A DNA stretch of 64,000 bases from a virus (lineage: Duplodnaviria; Heunggongvirae; Uroviricota; Caudoviricetes). The notes beneath the pieces were generated by a model, which was given only the letters and a program-made list of their open reading frames with translations, made no database searches and had not been told where the DNA came from. The translations under genes and the position numbers were made by a program. Positions 16,628 to 41,333 of the stretch are shown piece after piece. Each line of letters opens with the position of its first letter. The stretch's first letter is position 1. The DNA is taken from the IMG/VR virus record IMGVR_UViG_2563366960_000002; one strand, given 5' to 3'.

Positions 16628-16703
16628 TGGTGGCCCCTACCGGACTTGAACCGGTGACCGTGCGATTATGAGTCGCCAGCTCTAACCACTGAGCTAAAGG
16701 GCC
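16628..16703 (-). tRNA. tRNA-Ile (anticodon CAU, ileX-like)
   Basis: Cloverleaf read by eye: acceptor GGCCCTT/AGGGGCC, D-arm GCTC-AGTGGTTA-GAGC, anticodon loop CTCATAA, T-loop TTCAAGT, encoded CCA; near-identical to E. coli ileX as recalled. Confidence 0.8.
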
Positions 16704-16730
16704 GGATTACTGCCAATTTTGCTTACGCTT

Positions 16731-17558
16731 TTATTTCACCGGAACAAACGGAACAGCGGCATTACTGGTCATATACTGCGGTAATGTACCGTTCCATTTG
16801 TTGATCGCTTCCAACTCCATAACACCGGGGTTCTGGCGCAGAGCTTCACCACGTAAACGAATGGCATCAGCTTCGGCCTGGGCTTTTGTGCGAATAGCAT
16901 CAGCCTGTCCGGCAGCTTCCGCGCGCAGCATGTTGGCCTCTGCTTCACGTTGTTTGACCTCTTGCTCGCGTTGCAGGGTTTTTTGGTTTGCCGTAACTTT
17001 GGCGTTAATACTGTCAATAACTGTTGGCGGATATTCTGGCTTACCTACATAAGAGAGGCTCATCACCTGAATGCCGATTGGCGTCATTTCTTCCTGAATG
17101 TCTTTAAGGGCTGCATCAAGCAATTCAGATTTGCCACCGTCGATAAATTTGTCGGTGGTCATTTTGCTGGCTAACCGGTTCAGAGCATCTGCAACCTTCT
17201 GGCGTAGATCGGTATCAGTAATATCATCTACACCTTTGCGATAGGTCTGAAATACCGTTGTGACTTTTGCTGGATCAACCTTGTAGGCTACGCCGATGTG
17301 GTAACCAATGGTTGTTCCGTCGCTCATCTGGAAGCTGAACGGCTCATCGTATGTCTTCATTTGCTTAAAGGTCGGGAAGATATAAACTTCAGTATTCAAG
17401 CCTGTCCAGTAGCGACCAACACCAACTACTTCACCGATACCTTTATCATCCCCCAGCTTATTTACTTTGATCCCTACGTTACCTGGCTCTACCCGATCGC
17501 ATCCGGTCAGACATAAAGAACCCAAAATAATCGCTGCACTAATCAACGTTTTTTTCAT
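16731..17558 (-). CDS. plp: SPFH/band-7 domain lipoprotein (P1 Plp-like)
   Basis: 275-aa ORF; signal peptide with lipobox LTGC; band-7 core and C-terminal coiled coil. Confidence 0.65.
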   Translation of the reverse strand: MKKTLISAAIILGSLCLTGCDRVEPGNVGIKVNKLGDDKGIGEVVGVGRYWTGLNTEVYIFPTFKQMKTYDEPFSFQMSDGTTIGYHIGVAYKVDPAKVTTVFQTYRKGVDDITDTDLRQKVADALNRLASKMTTDKFIDGGKSELLDAALKDIQEEMTPIGIQVMSLSYVGKPEYPPTVIDSINAKVTANQKTLQREQEVKQREAEANMLRAEAAGQADAIRTKAQAEADAIRLRGEALRQNPGVMELEAINKWNGTLPQYMTSNAAVPFVPVK

Positions 17559-17775
17559 TAATTAATTTCCTGGTTTTTTCACGAAAAAAGACTACTGCGA
17601 AAGCCGGGTAAATGAGCGCGAGAAGGACTCCCAACAATACAAGTATTGTGCTGTTAGATGAGATCATATTTGGCAAAAGCCAAACATACAGAACCAGTGA
17701 CACAATCAAACAGAGGACGGCATAAATATATAACCGCACCCATAGCGTTCGACATTTGTTCGGATTGTTCTGCAT
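17539..17775 (-). CDS. small membrane protein (P1 Upl-like)
   Basis: 78-aa ORF with two hydrophobic helices, overlaps plp start. Confidence 0.5.
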   Translation of the reverse strand: MQNNPNKCRTLWVRLYIYAVLCLIVSLVLYVWLLPNMISSNSTILVLLGVLLALIYPAFAVVFFREKTRKLINEKNVD

Positions 17776-17931
17776 CCTCTCACTCCATTATTTAACGAAT
17801 AAAAAAGCTGCGGTGCCGGGTACCTCCCGGTGTCCTTTGGCTGGTTATCCACCGTGGACGGGGAAACAAGGAGAAATGAATGGACTGATATAACCATTTC
17901 CCCGCGTGCGCTTAGCCGCATTCACCGCAAT

Positions 17932-18031
17932 GGTAAGAGCACTTGGCTGGCTGGGCGGCGATGACGCCTGTATGCATTTGGTGATCCGGTTCTGCTTCCG
18001 GCATTCGCTTAATTAGCCAAATACTCTTAAC
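17932..18031 (-). repeat. GGTAAGAGCA-initiated structured element directly 3' of tRNA-Ser (imperfect partner TACTCTTAAC)
   Basis: Direct read; shares terminal motif with elements at 18497 and 19038. Confidence 0.3.
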
Positions 18032-18038
18032 GTTGCGC

Positions 18039-18125
18039 TGGCGGAGAGTAATGGAATCGAACCATCATCGCTTGCGCTATGGGACGGTTTTCAAGACCGC
18101 TTGAGCACCATGCTCCCTACTCTCC
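18039..18125 (-). tRNA. tRNA-Ser (anticodon UGA), class II with long variable arm
   Basis: Acceptor GGAGAGT/ACTCTCC, anticodon arm GCGGT-CTTGAAA-ACCGT, T-loop TTCGATT, encoded CCA; D-arm spacing non-canonical, needs covariance-model check. Confidence 0.65.
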
Positions 18126-18259
18126 CGTTATTGTGGCGACCGGTGCTGATCTCCGGCTTGCGGTTATTTCAGACTCTCACGGGCGTTTAATTGCCCCGCC
18201 GAACAGCTCTTTTCCGCAATAGCTGCAATGTCTTTCGCGCATCAGCCTGCGCATTCACC

Positions 18260-18350
18260 ACAACGTTGAGAACACTGGTTGTCACGCGCAACGCAACATT
18301 TATTCGTAGATTGGGATATGACCCCGTTACGCCAGTGTTCTCAACGTTGT
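18260..18350. repeat. perfect 19-bp inverted repeat ACAACGTTGAGAACACTGG / CCAGTGTTCTCAACGTTGT around a 53-nt spacer
   Basis: Direct read, arms 18260..18278 and 18332..18350. Confidence 0.7.
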
Positions 18351-18496
18351 AGTGCCGGTTACGGTTCCGGCCAGGCCTCTTCCTCAACGGGGTGTTCTCC
18401 ATACGGACTACCGTTTATTGGTCGTTCCTGCGGTTTATGTTGTGAAGCCAGATGCTTATCTTCTGGTTGCTTCAAAGAGCTGCACTTCATCACAAC

Positions 18497-18570
18497 GGTA
18501 AGAGCATTTATGGCTCGCATCGCGGGAAAAAGCCCACGGTAGAGAGTCGAACTCTACAAATGCTCTTACC
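18497..18570 (-). repeat. tRNA-sized palindromic element (13-bp terminal stem GGTAAGAGCATTT/AAATGCTCTTACC, internal T-arm-like hairpin) directly 3' of tRNA-Thr
   Basis: Direct read; no full cloverleaf could be drawn. Confidence 0.45.
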
Positions 18571-18578
18571 TGTTGTGT

Positions 18579-18654
18579 TGGTGCCGGTTAACGGGATCGA
18601 ACCGCTGACCATTCGCTTACAAAGCGACTGCTCTACCAACTGAGCTAAACCGGC
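18579..18654 (-). tRNA. tRNA-Thr (anticodon UGU)
   Basis: Acceptor GCCGGTT/AACCGGC, D-arm GCTC-AGTTGGTA-GAGC, anticodon loop TTTGTAA, T-loop TTCGATC, encoded CCA. Confidence 0.8.
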
Positions 18655-18658
18655 AATT

Positions 18659-18745
18659 TGGTGGGGAGTGATGGAGTCGAACCACCCGAGTCGCAATGAC
18701 AGTAGATTTACAGTCTACCCCGCTACCCCTACGGACTAACTCCCC
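18659..18745 (-). tRNA. tRNA-Tyr (anticodon GUA), class II
   Basis: Anticodon arm GTAGA-CTGTAAA-TCTAC and variable arm nearly identical to E. coli tRNA-Tyr as recalled; acceptor GGGGAGT/ACTCCCC; D-arm spacing irregular. Confidence 0.65.
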
Positions 18746-18750
18746 TAAAT

Positions 18751-18827
18751 TGGCGATGGTGGGTGGATTCGAACCACCGACCGACAGCTTAGAAGGCTGC
18801 TGCTCTATCCTACTGAGCTACACCATC
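18751..18827 (-). tRNA. tRNA-Arg (anticodon UCU)
   Basis: Acceptor GATGGTG/CACCATC, D-arm GCTC-AGTAGGATA-GAGC, anticodon arm GCAGC-CTTCTAA-GCTGT, T-arm GGTGG-TTCGAAT-CCACC, encoded CCA. Confidence 0.8.
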
Positions 18828-37742: not shown

Positions 37743-38588
37743 TCACCCTCTGAATCCTGCCGGTATACCCCATTGTTCGTTATCTTTATTTTTGGCTAAA
37801 ACCGCATTAAGAGCTTTGTTTACCGTCATGCAATGCGGCAGATTATCGAAGTTTGATATCCCGCAAATATCAGGAGAACGCTTGTTCTTCAGGTAAGCAT
37901 ATTTCCGCGCTGCCGCCTCTACTTTCTGCTTGAACTCATGTTTTTGAGCGCGTTTTTTGGATAACCGCAGATTGTCAGCCTTTGCTTTTGCCTCAGCGAT
38001 CCATGAAGTCAATTTTTTGAGTCTGGTCGTTCCGGCACCGCCGGAAACTGATCTTTTTGTTTTTTTAACTTGTGACTTCTTATTCTTTATTGCCACGTCA
38101 TCCTGACAGGGGGAGGGGGTATCATTTTGACATGGGGGTGTGGATAAAAAATCAAATAAAGCCAATGTATTAGCGAGAACAGCTTTAACCTTGGTTGCGG
38201 CTGAAGAGATCTTTAATTTGCTTTCAATCAGCGCGTTTTTAGCGTGTTGTGCGAAGGCCAAAAAGGATGGTGTAAACCGGTACAGGTTAGCGCGGCGTTC
38301 ACGGTGATCGCCGATAACAATCTCTACAGACAGGATTCCTTTGTTTACAGCTTCACGGAATGCACGAACGACGGTTGATTGACTATAACCAGTTTCTGCC
38401 GCGATCAGGCGGTGAGGCTTGTGAATGAAGTATTCACTGGTTGTTGCCGCGAGATTTGCACATTGCGACAGGATATGCCCGGCGCTACGGGATAGACCGG
38501 AGTGTGTTACAAAGCAGGCCAATTCATAGCCAGAAAAAGTAAAATCGCTCATCGTTATACAGCTCAGGAAAGTGACTTTAGCCAGCAT
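37743..38588 (-). CDS. repL: lytic replication protein RepL-like
   Basis: 281-aa ORF after kilA under an operator-bearing promoter; HTH-like AAETGYSQSTVVRAFREAVNKGILS; size matches P1 RepL as recalled. Confidence 0.6.
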   Translation of the reverse strand: MLAKVTFLSCITMSDFTFSGYELACFVTHSGLSRSAGHILSQCANLAATTSEYFIHKPHRLIAAETGYSQSTVVRAFREAVNKGILSVEIVIGDHRERRANLYRFTPSFLAFAQHAKNALIESKLKISSAATKVKAVLANTLALFDFLSTPPCQNDTPSPCQDDVAIKNKKSQVKKTKRSVSGGAGTTRLKKLTSWIAEAKAKADNLRLSKKRAQKHEFKQKVEAAARKYAYLKNKRSPDICGISNFDNLPHCMTVNKALNAVLAKNKDNEQWGIPAGFRG

Positions 38589-38617: not shown

Positions 38618-39418
38618 TTAGCGCGTTGCCGCGACAGGTACCAGCACACCAGCATCAAGCAATCGCTTCATCAGCCACTGCTGACCTTTGCCGGTTATAC
38701 GAGTCGTGAAAGAAATCCTGCTTCCATTGCTTGTATCGATCACGGTTTCTTTAAGGGTGAAATACCCACGGGATATGTATTCTTGTTTGGGGACGTTCCT
38801 GCGTTCACCGGTTGCGATCAGAATTCCGTTATCACGCAACCAGGTGAAGAGATAGTTTTGGCCCAGGCCGAGCACTTTGGCATAGTTGCCGATTAGAACC
38901 CCGCTGGCGGTAGCAACGCGTTCGGCGAATTCGACTTTAGGTGCATCCATCAGCATTTTTTGCTCCAGCCGTTGCTTTTGCTCTGCCAGGTCGGCAGCCA
39001 AACGGAGAGCTTCTGGGAGGCTCTTCGGAATAGCAGGTTGTAATCTTCCAGCTCGATAGTCGATAAATGTCTGGTTTACCTTCAGCCGAAACGCGGGAGA
39101 AATCCAACCAGCGTACTCCACTGCGAGCAATTCATGGGCAAAAGTGCCGCCGCCACGGCCTTCGAACGAAACTATGCAATTCTGCATAGTTTCTTTTTCA
39201 AGCTCTTCGATGAGCTGTTTTGCTGACAGCGTTCTTAGCCATTGAGCTGGCGCTTTATGGGCACCGAGTCCGCTCGCTCTGTGTAGAGCATTAAGGTTGT
39301 AACGGCCAGCGCGGTCGGTCGTAATTTCAACACCACAAATAACGGGCAGAGTGGTTGAAGGATCGACATTTTGATGAAGGTTTGATATATTCATATCCGC
39401 ATTGAATGTTTGTTGCAT
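38618..39418 (-). CDS. kilA: KilA-N / antirepressor KilAC-domain protein (P1 KilA-like)
   Basis: 266-aa ORF; C-terminal LPEALRLAADLAEQK...GNYAKVLGL...LFTWLRDNGIL is the KilAC pattern shared with the upstream Ant. Confidence 0.65.
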   Translation of the reverse strand: MQQTFNADMNISNLHQNVDPSTTLPVICGVEITTDRAGRYNLNALHRASGLGAHKAPAQWLRTLSAKQLIEELEKETMQNCIVSFEGRGGGTFAHELLAVEYAGWISPAFRLKVNQTFIDYRAGRLQPAIPKSLPEALRLAADLAEQKQRLEQKMLMDAPKVEFAERVATASGVLIGNYAKVLGLGQNYLFTWLRDNGILIATGERRNVPKQEYISRGYFTLKETVIDTSNGSRISFTTRITGKGQQWLMKRLLDAGVLVPVAATR

Positions 39419-39487: not shown

Positions 39488-39504
39488 AAATTTATTAGAG
39501 CAAA
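39488..39504 (-). promoter_or_regulatory. C1-type operator (TTTGCTCTAATAAATTT on minus strand), 16/17, upstream of kilA-repL
   Basis: Direct read. Confidence 0.65.
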
Positions 39505-39581: not shown

Positions 39582-40619
39582 TTAACCTATTGCTACTGGT
39601 TTTAACAAACCAGCATCAAGTAGCTTGCGAGTTAACCACTGCTGGCCTTTACCCGTTAATTGGGGCGTCAGCCGTATCTGGTAGCCATTTTCATCATCCA
39701 GCACCACTTCTTTCACCGTGAAATACCCGGCGTTAATGTACTGCTGGCGCGGTACGTTTTTGCGCGCACCAAAAGCCATGAGAATGCCGTTCTGGCGCAA
39801 CCATGAGAAAAGGGCGTTTTGCTTAAGTCCAACGACCTTTGCAAAGTTCCCGATCAGGATTCCATTAGCCGCTGATACCCGGTCGGCAAAATCGACTTTA
39901 GGGGTTGCGGCCACCAGCTGTTGTTCCAACTGCATTTTCTGTTCTGCCAACTCGGCAGCCAGGCGTAGAGCTTCTGGTAATGTTTGGGGGATCGATGGGG
40001 CAGGGGAGTTTGCCTGCTGCAATTCTTCCAGTTTGTCGATCAGCGAACGGCGGACCGCTTTTGACTCGCGCGCGGCGACTCGCAGGGCTTGTTTGAAAGT
40101 CATGGTTATGACAAGCATTGATGTTTTGTTCATTTTTTCCACTACACTTTTTGTGTAGTGCTCACCATCAAGCTCATCGAGTATTTTTTCGATGAATTTG
40201 TTGTTCCGAACCTCTGGTTCCCCACATAACTTACGCGCTTCATTGACCATCTTTAACAGTGTCAGGCTGTCGATTGTGTCTCCGGTGTTGGAGATAACAT
40301 TCACTGCTGGTGATGGCGTAGCTGAAGCAACAGGTGCTGGTTTTTCAACATTCAAATTATTACCGGTCATTCTGCGCGCCTCCTTTCTCATTTCTGCTGC
40401 CACTGTTGCGTAACGTAGACGTCCTTGTTCAATCAAATAATCCCTGATCTCGGCTATCAGTAGCCTGTTGATCACAGCCTTATCTGTTCGGGTATAAAAA
40501 CGTCTGGTTATCATGAAATAGTTGGCAATTGCGCCGGGGATCTCCCGTGTCGGCATACAGGTTGTATGCAAAGCGATCGCTTCGGCTATTTCATTACGGG
40601 TGACGAGAGGTGTTTTCAT
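39582..40619 (-). CDS. ant: antirepressor Ant (KilAC C-terminal domain)
   Basis: 345-aa ORF; C-terminus paralogous to KilA C-terminus; start overlaps icd stop. Confidence 0.7.
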   Translation of the reverse strand: MKTPLVTRNEIAEAIALHTTCMPTREIPGAIANYFMITRRFYTRTDKAVINRLLIAEIRDYLIEQGRLRYATVAAEMRKEARRMTGNNLNVEKPAPVASATPSPAVNVISNTGDTIDSLTLLKMVNEARKLCGEPEVRNNKFIEKILDELDGEHYTKSVVEKMNKTSMLVITMTFKQALRVAARESKAVRRSLIDKLEELQQANSPAPSIPQTLPEALRLAAELAEQKMQLEQQLVAATPKVDFADRVSAANGILIGNFAKVVGLKQNALFSWLRQNGILMAFGARKNVPRQQYINAGYFTVKEVVLDDENGYQIRLTPQLTGKGQQWLTRKLLDAGLLKPVAIG

Positions 40620-40837
40620 AAACCCCCCTGAACGTCGGCAGAGAAGGGGAGGCTCCAGTAACTAAGTGAATTGCGCGAGTCAGTTGAAAAACGGGCAGTA
40701 AAAATGCAGGGGCCATCAGGCAATTGAGAGCGTGCTTCGTCTTCTGTTGCTGCGATAACGAAGTGATAGTGACGTTTTTGGCAGGAGTAAAAGCGCCAGA
40801 TAAATTCAGGATGAGTTTGGGTAGGGGTAGTAGCCAC
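40616..40837 (-). CDS. icd: Icd-like cell-division inhibitor, small ORF coupled to ant
   Basis: 73-aa ORF, GTG start after AAAAGGAGG RBS; position and size match P1 icd as recalled. Confidence 0.55.
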   Translation of the reverse strand: MATTPTQTHPEFIWRFYSCQKRHYHFVIAATEDEARSQLPDGPCIFTARFSTDSRNSLSYWSLPFSADVQGGL

Positions 40838-40879
40838 AATGGCAGCCTCCTTTTGCTAATTTAAGGAGCTACCGCGTGA

Positions 40880-41090
40880 GGTTCCAATCTCAATGGCGGT
40901 AGCACTGACTGGGTTGGAACTACCGGCGCAAAAGGGAACCGGCCTGCCTTTCGGCAGCCCAGCCAGCACTACCATTGATCTCGGAGCTATGTGCTACGTA
41001 TGGCTGTGCGATGGCATGACACAAAAAAGACGCTTTTGGCGTCTGTGTCGCCTTTTGCATTATCCGGGGTTCCAATCCCGGCATCCGTTT
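40880..41090 (-). ncRNA. c4-type antisense RNA region with complementary target elements (boundaries approximate)
   Basis: Leader between operator/promoter and icd contains GGTAGTTCCAACC complementary to GGATTGGAACC upstream and GATTGGAACCTC downstream; the latter sits in a hairpin next to the icd RBS. Confidence 0.4.
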
Positions 41091-41170
41091 TACTAAGATG
41101 CCTGTTTAGGATAAACCGAAAATGCATTAGCACGCAAGAAAGTTAATGTAGCATATGAAGCTAAAAAAAC

Positions 41171-41187
41171 AAAATAATTAGAGCAAT
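41171..41187 (-). promoter_or_regulatory. C1-type operator variant (ATTGCTCTAATTATTTT on minus strand), 15/17, at the immunity-region promoter
   Basis: Direct read. Confidence 0.55.
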
Positions 41188-41333
41188 TTGCAACCGTGCG
41201 AATTATTTCTCAGGTAACTAAAATACATAACTTTAATTGATATAGATCAAAGATTTTGACCATTGCATGGTGAAACTTTGTGCTACAAAATGTTATTTTA
41301 AGGCGTTTTATCTGTGACAGGAGATAGTTAATC

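Follow-up and report, generated by a model that had tools for sequence, protein, structure and literature searches.

The question raised by this locus is whether the DNA between an operator-bearing promoter and icd encodes a c4-type antisense RNA that controls icd and ant, as in bacteriophage P1. A first-pass annotation had proposed such a switch, with three complementary boxes in the leader. Control of icd-ant by c4 is a well-known property of the immI regions of P1 and P7. The proposal was followed up in the window, i.e., the whole 64,000-nucleotide stretch of DNA that was analyzed, and in related loci. The Rfam C4 match, the collinearity with P1, the homology of icd and ant, and the covariation of the boxes all support control of the P1 c4 type. 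We consider it highly probable that the locus represents the regulatory leader of an immI operon of the P1 family, in which c4 represses icd-ant. Sequence, structure, homology, covariation and gene context were established here, and processing, repression and the termination step are carried over from P1.

Gene Context and Organization of the Locus

The window is a P1-like phage-plasmid that shares about 97.5% identity with P1 and RCS47 in the structural genes nearby. Its Icd protein is 85% identical to P1 Icd and matches the NCBIfam model phage_ICD_like (50.7 bits), and Ant shares 92% identity with P1 Ant1 and is recognized by Pfam ANT/KilAC (106 bits). Both genes are found directly downstream of c4 on the same strand, a layout from which we infer that c4, icd and ant belong to one operon. 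The order on the minus strand, 5′ to 3′, is operator-like site, two promoter-like elements, leader, spacer, c4, hairpin, Shine-Dalgarno sequence, icd and ant. All the strings quoted for the three boxes in the first-pass annotation are present, and those boxes are real; what had to be corrected is the strand, which is the minus one, and the number of box sets, which is two (six boxes). The features are as follows.

41171..41187, minus strand: C1 operator, homologue of P1 Oc4/Op51, ATTGCTCTAATTATTTT (consensus match and P1 alignment)
41145..41173, minus strand: operator-overlapping promoter, homologue of P1 P2c4/P51a (alignment to the annotated P1 promoter)
41108..41137, minus strand: putative second promoter, homologue of P1 P1c4/P51b (P1 alignment)
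41023..41101, minus strand: leader RNA with a1 and b1, an IsrK-like / c4-a1b1 element (Rfam isrK RF01394, fold)
41023..41101, minus strand: parts of this leader, namely hairpin 1, a1-loop hairpin, single-stranded b1 and terminator (fold)
41069..41075, minus strand: box a1, UUGGAAC, in the loop AUUGGAAC (sequence and fold)
41051..41058, minus strand: box b1, GCAAAAGG (sequence)
41018..41044, minus strand: intrinsic terminator-like hairpin AGACGCC-AAAA-GCGUCU, then UUUUUUGUGUC (terminator scan)
40895..40973, minus strand: c4 antisense RNA, predicted mature form of 79 nt (ends from alignment to the annotated 77-nt P1 c4)
40928..40935, minus strand: box b′, CCUUUUGC, in the loop of c4 hairpin 2 (sequence and fold)
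40914..40920, minus strand: box a′, GUUCCAA, in the single-stranded c4 junction (sequence and fold)
40868..40903, minus strand: a2-presenting hairpin with an 8-bp outer and a 4-bp inner stem, loop AUUGGAAC (fold)
40881..40887, minus strand: box a2, UUGGAAC (sequence)
40846..40856, minus strand: box b2, GCAAAAGG (40856..40849), and the icd Shine-Dalgarno sequence AAGGAGG (aligns with the annotated P1 b2)
40616..40837, minus strand: icd, 73 codons, GTG start, stop codon overlapping the ant start (ATGA) (ORF list and homology)
39582..40619, minus strand: ant, antirepressor of 345 aa (homology and Pfam)

Other features of the surroundings were recorded. Divergent from c4, the segment 41334..43292(+) holds three genes where P1 has the sim (superimmunity) operon; they encode a hydrophobic protein of 116 aa and two further proteins of 158 and 355 aa, the last of which has a marginal C-terminal match to SH3_3 (26.3 bits, slightly under the 27-bit cut-off). 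A C1 operator with one mismatch lies at 39488..39504(-), just downstream of ant and ahead of two ORFs, 38618..39418 (266 aa) and 37743..38588 (281 aa), an arrangement that matches P1 Op53 with kilA and repL. Four tRNA genes, three of them tightly clustered at 18582..18827, occupy a P1-like tRNA region at 16631..18827(-).

The c4 RNA

The Rfam C4 model (RF01695) recognizes the segment 40979..40892(-) with 76.7 bits, well over its gathering score of 45, and the match is full-length (model positions 1-87). The same search found no second c4 copy within the window. The RNA folds as expected of a c4-type molecule: the predicted 79-nt form has a 16-bp closing stem and two hairpins (minimum free energy -46.6 kcal/mol, z = -5.27), a P1-c4-like structure that leaves a′ and b′ unpaired.

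Related loci were used to examine the stems. The survey consisted of 80 loci collected from IMG/VR via Icd, to which P1 and D6 were added, and comprised 83 loci with 62 distinct leaders, in which three RNA scaffolds are found (P1-like, D6-like and L011 type). Thirteen distinct c4 sequences representing the three scaffolds show 92% of cells paired in the c4 stems, with both sides changed in 12 of the 27 pairs. Helix 1 is paired throughout (100%), and half of its pairs (8/16) changed on both sides. None of 500 shuffles reached the observed level of covariation, and slid controls were at most 57.5% paired. All 13 sequences share the 5′-terminal G1 G2 U3 and a CC-N-CC at the 3′ end, features expected of an RNase P substrate. 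The tail of the window c4 is GCC-A, which resembles a tRNA discriminator followed by CCA. In P1, c4 is a 77-nt RNA cut from a precursor, its 5′ end being made by RNase P. The mature ends of the window c4 are predicted, and they were placed solely by alignment with P1.

Two Sets of Complementary Boxes

The three strings that had been proposed as complementary are GGTAGTTCCAACC at 40924..40912(-), within c4; GGATTGGAACC at 41078..41068(-), 5′ of c4 in the transcript; and GATTGGAACCTC at 40889..40878(-), 3′ of c4. The exact Watson-Crick core shared by them is 7 nt long and consists of GUUCCAA in c4 (40920..40914) and UUGGAAC at 41075..41069 and 40887..40881. A 10-mer, GATTGGAACC, is found at only two places within the 64-kb window, the upstream and the downstream box. 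In the nomenclature of P1, these boxes are indeed the a set (a1, a′ and a2), but the icd ribosome-binding site is covered by a b set that the first-pass annotation had missed. It is composed of b′, CCUUUUGC at 40935..40928, and two copies of GCAAAAGG at 41058..41051 and 40856..40849. The downstream copy, b2, overlaps the icd Shine-Dalgarno sequence AAGGAGG (40852..40846). The probability of finding such an arrangement by chance was estimated with 5000 dinucleotide-preserving shuffles of the 264-nt leader. One target-antisense-target triple of at least 7 nt appeared in 66 of the 5000 shuffles and two triples, the number observed, in one of them, i.e., a probability of about 2e-4.

The downstream a box had been described as part of a hairpin with an 8-bp stem, and folding agrees: the outer stem GCUACCGC/GCGGUAGC joins 40903..40896 with 40875..40868, an inner stem of 4 bp follows, and the box is located within the 8-nt loop AUUGGAAC. 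The loop that presents a1 upstream is identical in sequence to that of a2, and in the predicted fold it is closed by a G-C pair. Since nucleotides 40903..40896 serve both as the 5′ arm of the a2 hairpin and within the 3′ arm of the c4 closing stem, two folds compete in the unprocessed transcript. According to these fold models, the a2 hairpin is incompatible with a folded c4 in the precursor, the two structures have 8 nt in common, and one arm of the hairpin would be lost on processing.

Operator, Promoters and Leader

The operator-bearing promoter that had been noted upstream of the leader was found to be as described. The sequence ATTGCTCTAATTATTTT at 41187..41171(-) agrees with the consensus of the P1 C1 operator at 15 of 17 positions and aligns with the annotated P1 operator. 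Within the window, nine C1-operator-like sites were observed against 0.46 expected by chance. The upstream promoter has the -35 hexamer TTTGTT (41173..41168) and the -10 hexamer TACATT (41150..41145). The downstream promoter, located outside the operator, has TTGCGT (41137..41132) and TATCCT (41113..41108) separated by an 18-nt spacer, and its -10 aligns with TATAGT, the -10 of P1. A generic sigma-70 promoter scan picked up neither of the two leader promoters, and both were placed by homology to P1. The start of the transcript is predicted at the G at 41101/41102, position 1 of the Rfam isrK model being 41101.

The leader, 41101..41023(-), matches Rfam isrK (RF01394) with 58.5 bits (threshold, 50) and, as shown by the terminator scan, ends with a terminator hairpin and a U run. 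A hairpin followed by UUUUUGUGUC occupies the corresponding position in all three scaffolds (D6, L011 and P1), its stem differing in sequence between them. Leaders of the D6 and L011 scaffolds score 59-62 bits with isrK. Those of the P1 scaffold score 47-56 bits with c4-a1b1 (RF03163), the homologous leader of P1 itself giving 51 bits, and 35-48 bits with isrK, which is below the threshold. Because the same leader element is matched by isrK or by c4-a1b1 depending on the scaffold, the two Rfam families describe one homologous element, and isrK and c4-a1b1 can now be linked as such. The shared element lies at 41023..41101(-) in the window, and at 921..1015, 1202..1280 and 1257..1334 in the surveyed loci L001, L002 and L011, respectively. 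The isrK family is absent from the C4 clan, CL00128.

The leader of about 79 nt might be a separate small RNA, a counterpart of IsrK, in which a1 and b1 serve as a decoy that holds c4 off the icd-ant mRNA. This idea is tentative and we regard it as rather unlikely; it comes from the fact that, in all specificity types, changes in a′ and b′ are accompanied by changes in a1 and b1, and that the a1 and a2 loops are identical. A decoy, an antisense and a target RNA could then make up a three-RNA circuit, set by the frequency of read-through at the terminator, with specificity re-assorted in modules. We offer this extension as speculation of the same low standing; re-assortment in modules is suggested by the existence of all four combinations of a and b boxes on the D6 scaffold.

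Conservation and Mosaic Origin

Loss of complementarity in related genomes had been named as the outcome that would speak against antisense control. The survey gave the opposite outcome, as changes in the c4 boxes are matched by changes in the target boxes. With G.U pairs allowed, a2/a′ and b2/b′ are complementary in 83/83 loci, and a1 and b1 match c4 in 81. Since the complementarity of a2/a′ and b2/b′ is kept through compensatory changes, the interpretation given in the first-pass annotation is supported. At least 13 different box combinations exist on the three scaffolds across the 83 loci. Loci with the D6 scaffold carry UUGGAAC or UUGAGAC as the a box and GCAAAAGG or GUCAAAGG as the b box, and each of the four possible combinations was found. 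The P1 scaffold has UUGACAG or UUAGCAG as a boxes and GUUAGUG, GAUUGUG, ACGAAUG or ACUUACG as b boxes. The L011 type has its own box pair, and each box pairs with one G.U. The exact-match search for triples found none in 27 L011-type loci, where the G.U in each box pair makes this zero a limit of the method and not of the biology; these loci were covered by a column-based alignment table instead. MAFFT columns defined from the window boxes were out of register for the P1 scaffold, and the exact-match triple search was used there. Two IMG/VR loci, L010 and L012, are natural recombinants in which the type of a1 does not correspond to that of a′ and a2 (UUGAGAC alongside GUUCCAA, or vice versa), and their leader is located about 240 nt upstream of icd. 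Their existence indicates that a matching a1 is not strictly required for persistence of the element.

The a/b box combination of the window is common, as it was found in 16 of the 83 surveyed loci, and the c4 sequence is identical in 13 distinct leaders. The region is present in 339 plasmids and in 303 complete E. coli genomes, and in many plasmids the regions are 98-99% identical. Over 41102..40776, which includes the leader and c4, the identity to phage D6 is 93%, while the sequence is P1-like from about 40810 leftwards. The position of this junction indicates that the exchanged cassette extends from the leader through c4 and its two downstream targets into the first codons of icd; c4 RNA and its targets travel together. 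The junction (40776..40810(-)) falls inside the first icd codons, and Icd differs from P1 Icd mostly in the first 10 residues. In other words, the window has a D6-scaffold c4 cassette recombined into a P1 backbone, with the b box in common with D6 and a different a box. Related cassettes are found in JL22 and RCS47 at a second site, between pacB and c1 (PMC6906374).

By analogy with P1, the 7-nt and 8-nt boxes would set immunity specificity. The same two bases differ between the window and D6 in a1, a′ and a2 (GGAA in the window, GAGA in D6). At the level of sequence, this change resembles the two-base differences between P1 and P7, whose heteroimmunity comes from small differences in immI (PMC6906374). 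With structure ignored, the duplex energy was -9.4 kcal/mol for the cognate a pairing and -3.4 kcal/mol for the window c4 on the D6 a2. The sequence UUGAGAU lies directly 5′ of a2 and overlaps it (40881..40892(-)); allowing for one G.U, it is the complement of GUCUCAA, the D6-type a′. The same bases also lengthen the precursor stem by pairing with GAUCAA 5′ of c4. One-way cross-repression of the window element by a D6-type c4 is suggested as possible by modeling in which the duplex energies ignore intramolecular structure.

Proposed Mechanism

By analogy with P1, the C1 repressor bound at 41187..41171 would shut off the operator-overlapping promoter. When transcription proceeds from the two promoters, the leader of about 79 nt would be formed first, with a1 in a hairpin loop and b1 single-stranded. 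Judging from homology, part of the transcripts would stop at the intrinsic terminator (41044..41018), and read-through would continue into c4. The c4 RNA, of about 79 nt, would then be cut out, its 5′ end presumably generated by RNase P as in P1. It is expected to pair in trans with the icd-ant mRNA through two contacts: a′ (GUUCCAA) in the c4 junction with a2 (UUGGAAC) in its hairpin loop, and b′ (CCUUUUGC) in the c4 loop with b2 (GCAAAAGG) over the icd Shine-Dalgarno sequence, so that icd translation would be blocked. The block would shut off ant as well, because icd and ant are translationally coupled through the ATGA overlap. In P1, an untranslated icd leads to Rho-dependent termination. 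A summary of the c4 mechanism of P1 is available (PMC8198154).

Alternative Explanations

The c4 region can also be read as a gene. The minus-strand ORF 40975..40856, of 39 codons, is a translation of c4 itself, and RefSeq records of plasmids, and of 303 among 5426 complete E. coli genomes, give the c4 region as an ‘ash family protein’, without an RNA feature. It is very unlikely that the product of this region is a 39-aa Ash family protein or that its translation matters as it does for orf45 of Gifsy-1, although the ORF matches Pfam Phage_ASH (PF10554) with 33 bits over a cut-off of 26, RefSeq calls it a CDS in about 300 E. coli genomes, and the ORF in the equivalent place of Gifsy-1 is translated and needed for expression of anrP (PMC4825925). 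With 14, 31, 39 or 41 codons in the relatives, or a frame open into icd, the ORF does not qualify as a conserved gene. The b′ box of P1 introduces a stop codon in the ORF, the substitutions are compensatory stem changes, and no NCBIfam model matches the 39-aa sequence. As for orf45, a review of the Gifsy-1 work states that its nucleotide but not its amino acid sequence is conserved (PMC12197685). The variable or interrupted length of the ‘ash’ ORF, together with variation that follows the RNA stems, led us to reject it as a conserved gene. The 39-codon ORF matches positions 49-87 of the Phage_ASH profile, and the L011 type, with its frame running into icd, matches positions 49-107; judging from these sequence matches, part of the profile seems to model translated c4 RNA. 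Annotators should treat 40973..40895(-) as an RNA gene and not as an ‘ash family protein’. The plus-strand ORF 40893..41096, which exists and which the first-pass annotation had dismissed as spurious, was also discarded as a real gene. It has no Pfam match and neither its frame nor its length is kept in relatives, so that the term ‘spurious’ is reasonable.

Alternatively, c4 could act mainly like CI of P4, pairing with a1/b1 and a2/b2 on the nascent RNA and causing premature transcription termination instead of blocking the icd ribosome-binding site. The c4 family is common to the P4 CI/seqA/seqC system (PMC4825925), a1 and b1 are located just upstream of an intrinsic terminator, and they covary with c4 in 81 of the 83 loci. 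Nevertheless, b2 overlaps the icd Shine-Dalgarno sequence in all three scaffolds although the b2 sequence differs between them, as a translational block predicts, and the two natural recombinants have a matched a2/a′ and an unmatched a1/a′. The primary effect of c4 in P1 is also reportedly on icd translation. Taken together, we judge a mainly P4-like action to be unlikely. More remote still, and strongly disfavoured, is the idea that the complementarity is due to chance or that the locus is an inactive relic of recombination between D6-like and P1-like elements. It is true that the cassette is a mosaic with a junction inside the first icd codons. However, such complementarity is hardly expected by chance according to the shuffle test (about 2e-4), the c4 sequence is identical in 13 distinct leaders, the box combination recurs in 16 of 83 loci, 339 plasmids and 303 complete E. 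coli genomes contain the region, and all parts are intact and collinear with P1. The preferred reading is therefore still translational repression of icd-ant by c4.

Comparison with Known Systems

Satellite phage P4 has, like the window, a processed small RNA located between two complementary targets on one transcript, the CI RNA with seqA, seqB and seqC (PMC4825925). P4 differs in that CI causes premature transcription termination of the replication operon and in having neither icd-ant nor a C1 operator. The leader described here also resembles the IsrK-STnc1160/orf45-anrP region of Gifsy-1, which has the same three hairpins, including a terminator, and downstream of them c4-like RNA and the gene of an antirepressor. 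In Gifsy-1, the short terminated IsrK RNA accumulates, binds Hfq and activates the read-through transcript in trans; a processed RNA complementary to IsrK lies downstream, and the authors liken IsrK to seqA of P4 (PMC4825925). The Gifsy-1 region has no icd, and its c4-like part is treated as the translated orf45. Besides, activation of long-transcript translation in trans by the short RNA was demonstrated there.

Phage D6 (NC_050154) and the window are 93% identical in leader and c4, and they have the same type of scaffold and the same b boxes. Each of the three a boxes differs at two positions (GGAA in the window, GAGA in D6), and D6 has another antirepressor and lacks the C1 operator and the upstream promoter at this place. 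A c4/icd/antirepressor region has been described in D6 and D6-like plasmid prophages (PMC6799933). Unlike the window, D6, JL22 and RCS47 have a second c4 copy. In D6, a second, weaker C4-like match (40.2 bits, below the threshold; 774..853 of the surveyed locus L002) is found about 470 nt upstream of the main c4, in line with the second c4/icd-like region reported in D6-like plasmids (PMC6799933).

As the check proposed in the first-pass annotation, the window was aligned with P1, and the alignment runs end to end with the annotated immI leader, from the operator and the two promoters through a1, b1, c4, a2 and b2 to icd. The order of parts is that of the P1/P7 immI (C1 operator, two promoters, a1, b1, terminator-like hairpin, c4, a2, b2 with the Shine-Dalgarno sequence, icd, ant). 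The lengths of the boxes (7 and 8 nt), the positions of a′ in the junction and b′ in the loop of hairpin 2, and a closing stem of 16-17 bp are also the same. On the other hand, the RNA scaffold of P1 is only about 69% identical to that of the window, beyond the range of megablast, and its boxes are UUGACAG/GUUAGUGA compared with UUGGAAC/GCAAAAGG in the window. The loop of hairpin 2 is 2 nt longer in the window, the 3′ tail is GCC-A in the window and ACC-U in P1, and other genes take the place of the sim operon found upstream in P1. At least 13 c4 box combinations on three scaffolds occur among P1-like phage-plasmids, often carriers of resistance genes, and these combinations probably decide which elements superinfect or coexist. 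The accepted mechanism of P1 is left unchanged, and the window carries the known c4 switch of the P1/P7 immI, its box combination being one that public sequences already contain many times.
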